This document shows, in pieces, positions 25,370-29,452 of a stretch of 36,726 bases of DNA. Position numbers and translations under genes: made by a program. The notes beneath the pieces were generated by a model. The model saw only the letters and a list, made by a program, of their open reading frames with translations, was not told the DNA's origin and did not search any database. Numbering within the stretch: position 1 is the first letter of the stretch; each line of letters opens with the position of its first letter. This DNA comes from a virus (taxonomy: Duplodnaviria > Caudoviricetes): positions 1 through 36,726 of IMG/VR virus record IMGVR_UViG_3300025018_000306. One strand, written 5' to 3'.

Positions 25370-26596
25370 TTAGATTGCGCCCAGCTTGATCGACCCGGCC
25401 CCGGACCGCATGGGCAGTTCCCATAGCAACAAGTATGCAGCCGCGTCCGTGATATGGTCAAGGCCAAGGCTCTTGTCTATCTCGCTCGTGCCCTCTTTGA
25501 AGGTCAAGCCGTCCCACCCTTTGCATAGATTCGGGCACTTGGCCGGGTTGACGTAGACTTTGCGGACCCCGGTTGACGTACATAGAGCGCTGTTGACCGT
25601 GTTTATCTTATCAGCTATGGGGTATGGGTGTGAAGGGGCTACAACCTGGAAGCCTGCATCCCGCAGGATGGTGAAGTCAGTCTGCCCGACAGGTGCGCTT
25701 GTCTTTCGTGCATTGCCGGTCGGGTCCGGGTAAATCACAATCTTTCTATCCGGGAATCTGCGCTTGATCGCATGTGACATTTCGACGGTGTTACCGTTCT
25801 GAATTAGTAACTCATCAAAAAAATGCACCTGATCGGCTGCCCTGAATGCGAACGCTGCCGACATTGGATTGACGTTAAAATCCATCCCCACAAGTACCGG
25901 GCAGTTTCCAGGGTCAATGGCTGGTATCGTGTTTTTCTCCCGGTCGTAGGCATAGTAGACGCGGCCGGACAGAGATTCAAAGCTGGCTTCGTACTCTTGC
26001 CGGAAGGTGCGCTCGTCCAGTTCGGCGCGGGCGGCTTCCACCTCTGAGGCTGGAACATTGCCGCCTTCAAGCGTGGTAAACTGGAAGGCTGACCAATCCG
26101 GCTTGGCCTTGGCCGATACGTATAAATCATAGAACCAGTTATATCCAGCCGGGGTTGAAATGAACAAGGCGCGGCCCATCCGGTCTGACAGGCTTGGCCG
26201 TATCGCCTCTGTCCAGGTTTCGCGTGACTGGAAAGCCGCCTCATCGAGTACCACAAAGTCAAGCCCGACGCCGCGCAAGCTGTCCGGGTTATCCGATCCT
26301 CTCAGGGCTATGGTGGACCCGTTGATGAAGTCCAGCCGCAGGTCGGTTTCGTTTTTCTTGGCTATGTAGGCTTTAGGTATCAACTCTTTCAGCTTTGACC
26401 AGCATATTTGTTGAGCCTGGCGGTAGGTCGGGGCAATCAGCCAGTTTATGGACCCTGGGTTGTTGACCGCCGATGTAAGCAGTTCGATGGATGCAAGGTA
26501 GGTTTTGCCGAATCGCCTGCCTGCATTGATTGCCCTGAATCTTTGCTTGCTTTTGTATACCGCCAGTTGCGAACCCGACAGGTCATACTCAATCAT
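25370..26596 (-). CDS. terL: Terminase large subunit
   Basis: AGRRFGKT Walker A, VVLDEAA Walker B, ISTP, GMDFN and DHITDA nuclease motifs. Confidence 0.97.
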   Translation of the reverse strand: MIEYDLSGSQLAVYKSKQRFRAINAGRRFGKTYLASIELLTSAVNNPGSINWLIAPTYRQAQQICWSKLKELIPKAYIAKKNETDLRLDFINGSTIALRGSDNPDSLRGVGLDFVVLDEAAFQSRETWTEAIRPSLSDRMGRALFISTPAGYNWFYDLYVSAKAKPDWSAFQFTTLEGGNVPASEVEAARAELDERTFRQEYEASFESLSGRVYYAYDREKNTIPAIDPGNCPVLVGMDFNVNPMSAAFAFRAADQVHFFDELLIQNGNTVEMSHAIKRRFPDRKIVIYPDPTGNARKTSAPVGQTDFTILRDAGFQVVAPSHPYPIADKINTVNSALCTSTGVRKVYVNPAKCPNLCKGWDGLTFKEGTSEIDKSLGLDHITDAAAYLLLWELPMRSGAGSIKLGAI

Positions 26597-26879
26597 CGCG
26601 CTTGCCTATCATTATGTGCGGAATCTCTGCGGCTATGATCTTGTTGGTGACAGTCGGGCTGCCATCAATCCGGTCAATCAGGTATTTCAATGCAGGAACA
26701 TCTCCTGCAATGGCAAGCTCGAGTAGTTTCCTTGCGGCGGCTTCCTTGCCGGTAATCTTGATATCCCGGTAGGTGACGCTTTCCTCTTGCAGAATGAGGT
26801 TAAGGGCGTCGGTGAATGTCTCGCCCTTCTTTGGCCGGCCATTGCGGTTTATGTTGGTGTCACCTTTCTTGAATGGCAT
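26589..26879 (-). CDS. terS: Terminase small subunit (DUF5681-like N-terminus)
   Basis: PFKKGDTNINRNGRPKKG...AIAGDVPALKYLIDRIDG; AAGGAG RBS; directly upstream of terL. Confidence 0.8.
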   Translation of the reverse strand: MPFKKGDTNINRNGRPKKGETFTDALNLILQEESVTYRDIKITGKEAAARKLLELAIAGDVPALKYLIDRIDGSPTVTNKIIAAEIPHIMIGKRDD

Positions 26880-27582
26880 TGGATGCTCCTTCACTAAGCG
26901 CCGGGGTCGGAATTGAACCGCCTTCTTTCTCCTGGAGTGGAGAACGTGTTACCGTTTCACTTCCGGCGCAAGGTTTCTTTGGGTACGGTTTTCTTAATGG
27001 TTCTATCTGTTTTCTTATGGATTCATCAAGGGGCATGAGGTATTTGTACTTAGGCTTACCATCTGCCCATTCAACATCAAGGCCAGTTGCTTTAAGTCTT
27101 TCAATGCTATTATAGCCATACTGGGAATAAATTGTTTTTCTGTGTGTCTTTTTGCCGTTTACAATAAGTGCATCCATCTTTGATTCACCAGTATACACCC
27201 AGCTTCCTGCTTGGTAAATACTACCTATATGGCCTTGGTCATTATCTGCATAGCTTACAACTAACTTTATTCCAGCTGATTGTTTTTTTAGCATTTTTAA
27301 AGATATGGCAATTATCCTTGAAACACTTGATTTATGTTTATTAAGTGCAACCCTAACAAGCTCTATGCACTCATATTGAGTTAGTTTATATGGCTTACCT
27401 ATGTTGTTATTTGCGCCATGTGAAAATAACACAGCGCCTATGTATTGATTATCCTCCCATACCCCAATTTTGACAATCTTTCCGACAGGCATACACCTTG
27501 AATAATGCCAATGCTCACAAGCGAACTTTGCCGCTTCGTGTGAACACCAGTCAAGTTTAAGGTCTACTTTGTCAGAACTCAC
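26860..27582 (-). CDS. mom: Mom-like adenine modification enzyme (GNAT fold)
   Basis: HWHYS, ELVRVAL, VVSYADNDQGHIGSIYQAGSWVYTG, KYKYL...PYPK; probable GTG start at 27582 after GGAG (the ORF track starts at 27621). Confidence 0.85.
   Translation of the reverse strand: MSSDKVDLKLDWCSHEAAKFACEHWHYSRCMPVGKIVKIGVWEDNQYIGAVLFSHGANNNIGKPYKLTQYECIELVRVALNKHKSSVSRIIAISLKMLKKQSAGIKLVVSYADNDQGHIGSIYQAGSWVYTGESKMDALIVNGKKTHRKTIYSQYGYNSIERLKATGLDVEWADGKPKYKYLMPLDESIRKQIEPLRKPYPKKPCAGSETVTRSPLQEKEGGSIPTPALSEGASNAIQER
26897..26969 (-). tRNA. Non-canonical tRNA-Gly-like element within the 3' end of mom
   Basis: Acceptor GCGCCGG/CCGGCGC+U73, D arm GTG/CAC, anticodon stem TTCTC/GAGAA with loop CACTCCAG, T loop TTCAATT; CCA not encoded. 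Confidence 0.8.
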
Positions 27583-28096
27583 AGCCACACTCCGGACATA
27601 CGTGTTTCTGCTTTTCGTCAAGTCTGCCCTGTTCTTCTATCCCCACAGGCTTGAAGTCTGGCCCGACTATGGCAAGATTGTACCCTGCAGGAAGCGCTAA
27701 CTCATCCCACTGAACATCAATCCCATCGGTAAACTCCAGCACACTGTCAATGGTCATCTGTCCATACTGGCTATTGAGGCGCAATAGCTTCTGTTTTGCA
27801 TCGGCTTCATCCTTGGCGTTTATATATGCCACAGGGAATAATGGCAAGCTATAGCCCGCTTTCCGCATTTCACAAAGGGCCTGGATGCGGCCATGCCCAT
27901 CAAGGCAGCGGTTATGCCCGTCGCTGTTCCATACGAAAAATGGGAAGGAAAAACCATACTTCTCTATGCTCGTTATAATTGAATCGATCTCTTTTTTCCC
28001 ACGCTTTTTTAGATTGCCCTGAAAATCCTCGATTGCATCGAGTGGCAAGAGGTCGGCTCCTTGGCATTGTATTTGTATAGTTTTACTATCTTGCAA
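27572..28096 (-). CDS. ParB N-terminal (ParB/Srx-like) domain protein with C-terminal CPECG zinc ribbon
   Basis: SIEKYGFSFP...LDGHGR...LRLNSQYG...VCPECGCEF; TTG start. Confidence 0.82.
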   Translation of the reverse strand: MQDSKTIQIQCQGADLLPLDAIEDFQGNLKKRGKKEIDSIITSIEKYGFSFPFFVWNSDGHNRCLDGHGRIQALCEMRKAGYSLPLFPVAYINAKDEADAKQKLLRLNSQYGQMTIDSVLEFTDGIDVQWDELALPAGYNLAIVGPDFKPVGIEEQGRLDEKQKHVCPECGCEF

Positions 28097-28139
28097 CTTT
28101 ACAACCTCTCTTATACTTTGACGGTCTGCCTGCTGGCAT
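28086..28139 (-). pseudogene. 17-aa ORF MPAGRPSKYKRGCKVAR, possible truncated terS remnant or leader peptide
   Basis: AGGAG RBS; MPAGRPSKY is a typical TerS N-terminus; overlaps the start of the ParB-N gene. Confidence 0.5.
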
Positions 28140-28150
28140 AATCTCTCCTA

Positions 28151-28223
28151 AGCCCCCGGAAGGAATCGAACCCTCGACATACTGATTACAGGTCAGTAGC
28201 TCTGCCTTCTGAGCTACAGGGGC
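28151..28223 (-). tRNA. tRNA-Thr(TGT) with C at position 33
   Basis: GCCCCTGTAGCTCAGAAGGCAGAGCTACTGACCTGTAATCAGTATGTCGAGGGTTCGATTCCTTCCGGGGGCT folds as a cloverleaf; CCA not encoded. Confidence 0.9.
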
Positions 28224-28228
28224 AAGAT

Positions 28229-28312
28229 TGAAAGCGGCGGGAGTCGAACCCGGCGAACAGGGGGTTCAAATACCTATCATTCCAGCCGCCTTACCCTTAC
28301 GGCCTCGCTTCC
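28229..28312 (-). ncRNA. tRNA-like RNA / pseudo-tRNA with degenerate anticodon arm
   Basis: Acceptor GGAAGCG/CGCTTTC+A, D stem GCC/GGC, T arm CGGG-TTCGACT-CCCG; lies 5 nt upstream of tRNA-Thr. Confidence 0.6.
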
Positions 28313-28359
28313 ACCGACTCTTTTTAACGTGTCCAAGCCGTCACGCTCGATCAAACTTA

Positions 28360-28388
28360 ACTCTACCGCACGCGCGGCCTGTTGTCAA
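28360..28388 (-). promoter_or_regulatory. Promoter for the tRNA-mom-terminase operon
   Basis: TTGACA-17bp-TAGAGT. Confidence 0.7.
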
Positions 28389-28400
28389 GGTTGGGCCTTT

Positions 28401-28670
28401 CTATGGTCTTGATTGCCTGCCATGCGGTTTTACAAACAGAATCTGCTCATACCTGCGCTTGTACAGCTCATTCATGTCTATGCCAAGTTCTTTAGCCTCA
28501 AGATAGCCTGGCCAGAATCCGGTCCACCGAGCAAAGGCTTTGTCGTGGCCACGGCAAGCACAGATAAACCACTGGTCTCCGCAGACTGAGCATCTTTCAA
28601 CGTCGCACCCTTCACGGTGGGGTTGGCCTGGTATTGCTCCGCAATCTGGGCATGTTTCAAGGTTTTTCAT
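28401..28670 (-). CDS. Cys-rich zinc-binding hypothetical protein
   Basis: CPDCG...H..GCDVERCSVCG...C.C..HD...WTGFWPG. Confidence 0.75.
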   Translation of the reverse strand: MKNLETCPDCGAIPGQPHREGCDVERCSVCGDQWFICACRGHDKAFARWTGFWPGYLEAKELGIDMNELYKRRYEQILFVKPHGRQSRP

Positions 28671-29452
28671 TTTATCGCTCCTATGGTTTGGTTTAGCCTG
28701 ATTGAAATATCGCGGAAGTATTTCAACAACTCATTGGCTGCCTGGTGCTGAACAGTTACCGATTCACCTTGTATGAATACTTCCCAGTTTTCAACCATCA
28801 TCTTGACAATCGCGCTTGCATCATTAAGGGTGGTGTATTCTTCATGCACCTCCGGCTTTTCAACTCGCGGCGGTGTCTCTATTGGCTTTCTCGGTGGCGC
28901 TTGGTTGGCTGTCCCTGGCTTTGGTGGCTCCGGGTTCGTCCAGGCTGTCCGTCCGATATTCTCGGTGTTCATCGTCGACGTGGTGCCGTGCTTTGTGGTG
29001 TAGGTTTTCTCACTGGAAGTTCTTCCAGTGACATCTGGCCGAAGTGATGCCACAAGGGGATGACCGACATTGCACTTTCGCGCTATCTCCCGATCACTCC
29101 ACTTTCCCCACTCAGGATCTTCCAGCAACCGCAGGACAGCCCTGCGCTTGTCCTCGTTCGTCCTACGTAGCCCATGGGCAGAATTGACGCCGACACTGAA
29201 CAGGACCGCTTCCCGTTGCGTGCCCTGCTTTATATCCGCGTCAATCTCAATGATATTGGCCATCCTGGCAGCGCCGACACGATGGAAGCCATCAGCAAGC
29301 CAGTATTCCTTCCCGTCATTGAATACGGTAATGGGTGGAAATACTGTACCTTCCTCCATGGCGTGCATGTACTCGGCTATGGTTTCGGCGCTTAGCTGCG
29401 CCCTAGGTTGCGTCCCGCCATCAAGGCGGATTTTGTCGGTACGGATTTTCAT
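28667..29452 (-). CDS. ParB/Srx N-terminal domain + HTH protein
   Basis: TQPR...FPPITVF...LADGFHR...NSAHG...WSDREIARKCNV. Confidence 0.85.
   Translation of the reverse strand: MKIRTDKIRLDGGTQPRAQLSAETIAEYMHAMEEGTVFPPITVFNDGKEYWLADGFHRVGAARMANIIEIDADIKQGTQREAVLFSVGVNSAHGLRRTNEDKRRAVLRLLEDPEWGKWSDREIARKCNVGHPLVASLRPDVTGRTSSEKTYTTKHGTTSTMNTENIGRTAWTNPEPPKPGTANQAPPRKPIETPPRVEKPEVHEEYTTLNDASAIVKMMVENWEVFIQGESVTVQHQAANELLKYFRDISIRLNQTIGAIK

Follow-up and report, generated by a model that had tools for sequence, protein, structure and literature searches.

A tRNA-Gly-like RNA inside the reading frame of a Mom-family gene of a tailed phage, a candidate glycine donor for DNA modification

Phage Mu's Mom enzyme takes glycine from Gly-tRNA-Gly, accepting all three E. 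coli isoacceptors and rejecting Gly-tRNA-Ala, and transfers the glycyl group to N6 of dA in double-stranded DNA, where it rearranges to 6-NcmdA and blocks restriction, as set out in the main text of the report on this reaction (Silva 2026, PMC13219725). The first-pass annotation of the DNA described here had named this co-substrate, and the published work bears it out for Mu Mom. Overexpression of Mu Mom is lethal, and the enzyme is under tight control (PMC7261163). A comparable supply of glycine is described for staphylococci (PMC7826273), in which Gly-tRNA is contested between EF-Tu and a GNAT-type transferase, a competition that certain special tRNA-Gly species evade, the first three T-stem pairs setting the affinity for EF-Tu and being normally tight in glycine tRNAs. 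Finally, a 76-bp tRNA-Gly-like "pseudo-tRNA" was described in 2011 within the first 150 bp of a mom homologue in the ssrA islands of Dehalococcoides (McMurdie 2011, PMC3146451), and the portion of that paper covered here gives no function for it. As far as these sources go, both a tRNA-Gly-like RNA in a mom homologue and the co-substrate of Mom are thus already known. The joining of the two was not found in the literature: a search that covered few subscription papers retrieved no link of a phage-encoded tRNA-like RNA to Mom activity, the main text of PMC13219725 contains neither "tRNA-like" nor "encoded tRNA", and two of its supplements are likewise silent on such an RNA.

The window analysed here, i.e., the whole stretch of 36.7 kb, is a linear record of a tailed phage with an estimated completeness of 50%. 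On its minus strand, replication genes are followed by a promoter-like site, a tRNA-Thr, a ParB-like gene, mom, a likely terS, terL, and the portal, head and tail genes. The promoter-like site (28360-28388) is a sigma-70-like consensus match at 10 of 12 positions, ahead of the tRNA-Thr, parB-like, mom and terS genes. The tRNA-Thr(UGU) at 28151-28223 is ordinary, does not encode CCA and was called by both ARAGORN and Rfam. The gene for the ParB-like nuclease domain (27572-28096; phrog_620, phrog_498) lies directly upstream of mom (26860-27582) and overlaps its start; a ParB-like gene also precedes mom in phiEf11, in MenE and in five scanned viral loci. The likely terminase small subunit (DUF5681, 26589-26879), whose start overlaps the mom tail, is named from its place before terL, where relatives have terS, and the large subunit (25370-26596) has Pfam and PHROG matches. 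No terminator-like site was found on the minus strand in 26500-28700. The DNA reads of three runs were consulted, of which a possible source run contains the stretch whole, with no variant over the element. At the other end of the window, a gene truncated by the contig end (2-2431, minus strand) encodes a fusion of an SNF2-type helicase with a DNA methylase domain of the N6/N4 type, and is a second DNA-modification gene of this phage.

The Mom-like nature claimed for the 240-aa product of 26860-27582 was borne out by profile and fold comparisons. It matches the Pfam family Mom (PF25680, E 1.5e-46, 159 bits against a curated cut-off of 27.1) and phrog_1384, and Mu Mom (PDB 8bv8) is both its best profile match (E 4.8e-19) and the first-ranked fold match of its predicted structure (E 2e-10, TM 0.64-0.69). 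Six of the seven proposed Mu active-site residues (H58, Y59, R111, S124, D149 and Y159) are kept as H26, Y27, R77, S88, D113 and Y123, whereas Mu R151 aligns to D115, at a position variable across 59 homologues, and Mu W48 and W181 are not kept either. Given that R151 and W48, both essential in Mu, are not kept in the clade of the window, the chemistry or the RNA binding in this clade may differ from that of Mu. Mu Mom ends at the motif PYPK, which also closes the core of the window protein (residues 1-202). Here, a tail of 38 residues follows, largely a translated RNA, predicted to be disordered (pLDDT about 46-62 against 83-98 in the core). Mu itself encodes no such RNA and uses the host isoacceptors.

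This RNA is a 73-nt tRNA-Gly-like cloverleaf at 26897-26969 (minus strand), with the sequence and coordinates first proposed for it. It starts 7 nt past the PYPK codons, a few nucleotides as had been stated. Its position by mom therefore stands, with the correction that it lies inside the mom reading frame: codons 205-229 of the tail are the element, and the frame runs on past U73 (26897) to a stop at 26862-26860, 37 nt further and within the next gene. An SD-like AAGGAG of the likely terS (26891-26886) begins 5 nt past U73. The acceptor stem pairs 26969-26963 with 26904-26898 and is followed by A8 and A9; the D stem pairs 26960-26958 with 26948-26946; the anticodon stem pairs 26944-26940 with 26931-26927 and closes an 8-nt loop (26932-26939) containing UCC, with C35, C36 and A37; the T stem pairs 26922-26918 with 26910-26905, leaving unpaired an A at 26907, on the 3' strand between positions 63 and 64. 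The first T-stem pairs are G49-C65, G50-C64 and C51-G63, a UUC T loop and the GG of the D loop are retained, and the three bases past U73 are not CCA. The minimum free energy fold is this cloverleaf (-29.3 kcal/mol, z -2.15), with 5 of 200 shuffles equally good, which taken alone is modest evidence.

Standard tRNA finders do not call the element: in the run of ARAGORN and Rfam (E<=1, including RF00005) that had been proposed as a check, the tRNA-Thr was the sole find of both. In contrast, a covariance model built from 76 relatives excluding the window (one close relative, L160, being in the training set) scores the element at 73 bits (E about 7.5e-16), whereas the tRNA-Thr receives 25.6 bits and ordinary tRNA-Gly 40-54 bits. 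Assignment to canonical bacterial tRNA-Gly was rejected on A8, the 8-nt loop, the bulged A, C51-G63 and the miss by ARAGORN and RF00005. Both A8 and the bulged A had been singled out early and occur in most of the family (see below). The enlarged anticodon loop, singled out with them, is present but belongs to the sub-lineage of the window, shared with L160 and L189, where the D loop is shorter by one base and so balances it. In most relatives the loop has 7 nt and positions 32 and 38 pair, as seen in 57 of 72 rows for alignment columns 35-41.

Mom-like matches were gathered at 238 loci, of which 230 entries, window included, reach the core end and 205 distinct ones have enough 3' flank. Using a strict parser, which required the stems and G53-C61 and no glycine-specific base, an element was found at most 45 nt from the Mom core end in 169 of the 205 distinct loci, a proportion that overstates prevalence because the viral set (the best 80 of 589) and the metagenome set (the best 80 of 553) were chosen by score to a query including the tail. 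The same parser gave 0/205, 1/205, 1/183 and 1/168 in four control windows; an earlier, looser one was dropped, its control matches being 9/205, 3/174 and 18/205 at the cut-off. The fair figure is that of the unranked genome set, 34 of 60 loci by the parser and 38 of 60 with model matches added. The linkage also holds in reverse. When viral contigs were searched with a T-arm and acceptor pattern, 74 of the 80 loci with flanks, among 120 matches listed, had a Mom-like HMM match within 3 kb (62 of them at 40 bits or more, the weakest at 23.6), and the remaining six have a short flank. These elements lie on the 5' side in 29 cases, further upstream in 2, on the 3' side in 42 and on the opposite strand in 1. 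With a looser pattern, 60 of 68 matches lacked a Mom match and by inspection nearly all of these are not this element, the other eight being family members. One strict pattern leads to an estimate of about 620 viral stretches, and a blastn search of the window element against 50,697 phage records retrieved one record only. The expected co-occurrence with mom homologues is therefore found in both directions.

The element is absent nearby in 22 of the 60 genome loci (parser and model matches), and the absences run by clade: six Serratia/Yersinia loci, eleven mostly Bacillota loci, four others, and Mu. The Serratia/Yersinia and mostly-Bacillota clades of close homologues have no element within 1.5 kb, and neither do phiEf11, JD024 and S-SSM7. 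In a model search of five whole element-less genomes, with 150 candidates scored in each, the ten best places were nine ordinary tRNA-Gly and one tRNA-Arg, so that distant copies may still exist. These absences, together with the use of host isoacceptors by Mu Mom, do not sustain the term "dedicated", applied at first to this RNA, in its strict sense. Bacillota-type mom loci lacking the glycine RNA present instead, within about 130 nt past the mom stop, a hairpin followed by another, different conserved fold of three stems that contains an inner palindrome and a small AT-rich loop (L058, L092, L097, L098, L104, L107, L157, L228, L094, L111, L152 and L239, the last being phiEf11). This fold, in which the SD of the following gene seems to be hidden, is possibly an undescribed cis-regulatory RNA or promoter structure.

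The marks of glycine identity are almost invariant across the family, and the parser demanded none of them. G1-C72 and C2-G71 are found in 169 of 169 elements, as is CC in the loop (extended to CCA in 142), G3-C70 in 168 and U73 in 164. G1-C72, C2-G71, U73, C35 and C36 are published glycine determinants (PMC9976931, PMC7826273), and U73 protects Gly-tRNA from DTD (PMC6097841). The window element has this GlyRS identity set in full, in agreement with what had been noticed from its letters. Two related Methanobacteriota loci have elements with A73, which is the archaeal discriminator. Look-ups in PHROGs, NCBIfam, the Atlas and clusters gave no host for the A73 viral loci. Only L378 and L395 group with the Methanobacterium Mom (support 0.88) and the other A73 loci are scattered, so that two related loci carry the link to archaea; no element accompanies a third Methanobacteriota Mom (L246). 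In another locus (L006, 154-715), the A73 element is intact although a stop interrupts mom after 132 codons and a middle stretch of the gene is missing; the near-identical L370 carries the whole gene.

CCA is encoded in 117 of the 169 elements. The D arm is absent in 60, all of which encode CCA, against 57 of the 109 full forms; the D-armless forms are spread over 29 clades of a weakly supported tree, so that their independence is uncertain. As forms with a poor elbow would be unable to rely on CCA addition, this distribution suggests that the 3' end is mature and can be charged. In PMC5389517, E. coli GlyRS did not charge one irregular tRNA with U73, and in the window the 8-nt loop and the absent CCA could lower charging.

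In contrast to the glycine marks, those of translation are largely lost. Position 8 is A in 145 of the 169 elements, position 55 is G in 112, position 34 is A or U in 155, and U33 is kept in 48; the GG of the D loop, present in 62 of the 109 full forms, is uninformative. The bulged A occurs in 165 elements, with flanking pairs that covary in this register, and the four unbulged members have A-U, U-A or G-U at 51-63. The tight pair G51-C63 is found in three elements, all with A73, as opposed to eight of eight ordinary tRNA-Gly, which also have U8 in eight of eight. Its avoidance agrees with the weakened EF-Tu site first proposed from the window.

These features invite comparison with the staphylococcal NP1-NP3 tRNA-Gly, donors for FmhB, FemA and FemB, as they are described in the part of PMC7826273 covered. 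Both combine glycine identity, a weakened EF-Tu site and a GNAT-type partner, and the NP species share with most family members a 6-bp anticodon stem, a UGC-type T loop and G at 55. In contrast, the NP species come from separate genes on the chromosome, have a regular T stem (A49-U65, U50-A64, A51-U63) and serve cell-wall synthesis, whereas the window element has a bulged G/C T stem and A8, lies in the frame of its partner and is proposed to serve DNA modification, and D-armless forms occur in its family. Membership in the NP type was rejected on G49-C65, G50-C64, C51-G63 and the bulge; at most, the two work alike. The 8/4 selC* and allo-tRNAs, likewise non-canonical, also have an A bulged from the T stem (A51a), but theirs is on the 5' strand of an 8/4 branch in Cys, Sec or Ser types, whereas the window has a 7/5 branch with a 3'-strand bulge; the consulted parts of both sources (PMC5389517, PMC7609411) mention neither Mom nor such a tRNA-Gly. 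A further likeness, by its description in PMC3146451, is to the Dehalococcoides pseudo-tRNA, which has a tRNA-Gly-like fold and an NCC anticodon and is likewise embedded in a mom homologue with a ParB-domain gene upstream. It lies at the 5' end of the gene and in integrative islands, whereas the window element lies at the 3' end, in a tailed phage and before terS-terL; copies at the 5' end occur within the window element's own family.

Indeed, the position of the element varies from the 5' end to the 3' end of mom, past its stop, 1.3 kb off and, in one case, the opposite strand. Cultured phages that carry the RNA include Arthrobacter phage Martha and Salinibacter phage B2_17. In the latter it follows the mom stop (92.5 bits), and tandem copies of a D-armless element stand directly after the Mom core in three loci (L202, 1086 onward; L235, 771 onward; L101, 970-1108). 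In Microbacterium phage MenE (L240, 2154-2228), a near-regular tRNA-Gly(CCC) with A8, annotated as tRNA-Gly, lies right after mom on the opposite strand; its T stem is regular and it is therefore counted as weak support only. In a further locus (L127, 2071-2234), a tRNA-Met(CAT) comes immediately after the element, an arrangement like that of a tRNA operon. Within mom, each of the three phases is represented; of the 169 elements, 7 contain a stop and 3 have one before them. The Mom frame is free of stops through the element in 92 of 102 dereplicated elements, as opposed to 54 and 27 in the other frames, a bias that shared ancestry may inflate. Among non-standard phases alone it is open in 20 of 24 (13 and 8 in the other frames), and the frame is open through 30 of 31 copies at the 5' side and 36 of 42 copies at the 3' side of the reverse set. 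Read-through thus appears to be favoured at both gene ends, which a purely trans-acting donor would not need.

Selection acts on the RNA rather than on the peptide. Among 73 distinct full-length elements aligned, 92% of cells pair and 18 of 22 pairs change on both sides, with a covariation score of 0.536 against 0.136 when shuffled and at most 0.129 in slid registers; in this alignment the structure was drawn from the same sequences and the boundaries were set by conserved bases. When anchored on invariant bases only, acceptor pairs 4-7 still pair in 146-158 of 167 elements (shuffle maxima 84-109), and the T-stem pairs, without pairing being demanded, do so in 167 of 167. Acceptor pairs 4-7 underwent 53-74 parsimony changes each with pairing kept, counts that are upper bounds because the tree is weakly supported. 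The covariation predicted for the element is accordingly present. At the codon level, the 84 in-phase elements use a single codon for each conserved tail residue (Gly 81/82, Pro 80/81, Thr 82/83, Ala 62/62, Arg 72/72), and the same Gly, Pro, Thr and Ala codons account for 15-33% of usage in the Mom core. Covariation and frozen synonymous sites together indicate that the RNA is selected, not the peptide. That the cloverleaf is a relic left by some old insertion of a tRNA, or merely accompanies a conserved peptide tail of the type GGxxPT, could have been argued from the GGxxP-like tail of 105 of the 117 homologues with PYPK (a loose pattern) and from the dispensability of the element in some clades. 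These explanations are scarcely credible and largely refuted by the covariation, the anchored pairing and the codon data; in addition, about 52 of the 169 elements lie in other phases or contain stops, and the tail is predicted to be disordered.

The translation of the RNA as part of mom opens a cis-regulatory reading that the first-pass annotation did not contain. The tRNA mimic would act within the mom message, as an RNase P cut site or a binding site for Mom or GlyRS, limiting a toxic enzyme or separating mom from terS-terL, with charging incidental or absent. Read-through in all phases and at both ends fits such control, as do the lethality and tight regulation of Mu Mom and the SD just past U73, and cleavage at either gene end would disable the message. 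RNase P requires neither C35-C36 nor glycine-specific acceptor pairs, yet both are fixed here, even in D-armless forms with CCA, and stand-alone, distant and opposite-strand copies occur. Control in cis is compatible with a donor role; we consider it rather unlikely, but a real rival or else a second role of the same RNA. The identity and processing marks would fit equally well an RNA that is processed and perhaps charged to absorb host defences targeting tRNA-Gly, or to spare the host pool, without feeding Mom directly, and Mom can use host tRNA-Gly, as the main text of PMC13219725 reports for Mu. The near-exclusive linkage to mom in the reverse test, while Gly-tRNA-Gly is the Mom co-substrate, makes such a decoy or buffer improbable. 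Even less probable is a tRNA-Gly that, though odd, works in decoding and supports translation at a late stage of infection. ARAGORN does call near-canonical relatives tRNA-Gly in 8 of 60 loci on the mom strand and in MenE on the opposite strand, and the window retains its UUC T loop and D-loop GG; against this stand the scarcity of U33, the prevalence of A8, of A or U at 34 and of the bulged T stem, the 60 elements without D arm and the 8-nt loop of the window.

Overall, the best reading is probably that of an RNA processed, charged by GlyRS, evading EF-Tu and donating its glycine to Mom, since this would most simply account for the identity marks, the two-way linkage with mom and the free position of the element. 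The tRNA-Thr, parB-like gene, mom with its RNA, terS and terL lie on one strand and would form a single late transcript. RNase P would cut at G1, a 3' nuclease would trim the other side and the CCA enzyme would finish the end, as the phage tRNA-Thr also needs. The host GlyRS would recognise the identity elements and charge the RNA, and the T stem (bulged A, C51-G63, G50-C64) and the lost U8 and U33 would let it escape EF-Tu and decoding, giving a free pool of Gly-RNA. From this pool, Mom would move the glycyl group to N6 of dA in phage double-stranded DNA, giving 6-NcmdA, a step demonstrated for Mu Mom only. Maturation of the RNA would take away the mom stop in 3' copies, or the mom start in 5' copies. 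In the window, excision would leave a mom message without stop, each transcript yielding either full Mom or donor RNA, so that the dose of the toxic enzyme would be capped; as Mu Mom is lethal when overexpressed, processing may also serve to limit that dose. Since Mu and whole clades do without the RNA, it is not obligatory, and under the donor reading it is a booster for Mom rather than an obligatory partner. Of the two-part system of enzyme and private tRNA initially put forward, the homology, the co-occurrence, the covariation, the identity set and the avoided G51-C63 hold, whereas strict dedication and the enlarged loop as a family trait do not.

More tentatively, it is possible that these loci form a module, widespread among phages, whose DNA specifies at one and the same place the end of a DNA-modifying enzyme and its translation-proof aminoacyl carrier. 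This carrier would be matched to the synthetase of the host, by U73 in bacteria and A73 in archaea, and reduced as far as loss of the D arm. As its excision would destroy the message of the enzyme, a single cleavage would both supply the co-substrate and set the ratio of enzyme to donor. The element family is large and mostly overlooked by tRNA finders, and the conserved GGxxPT tail of many Mom homologues would be translated RNA rather than a protein motif. A GlyRS-charged RNA that avoids EF-Tu could also serve as a useful tool. If the donor reading is true, the newly solved Mom reaction gains a phage-encoded RNA partner, which would answer how Mom obtains Gly-tRNA normally held by EF-Tu. It would also explain a pseudo-tRNA left without a function since 2011, and would add the modification of phage DNA to the uses of dedicated tRNAs that do not serve translation, so far those of the staphylococcal cell wall.
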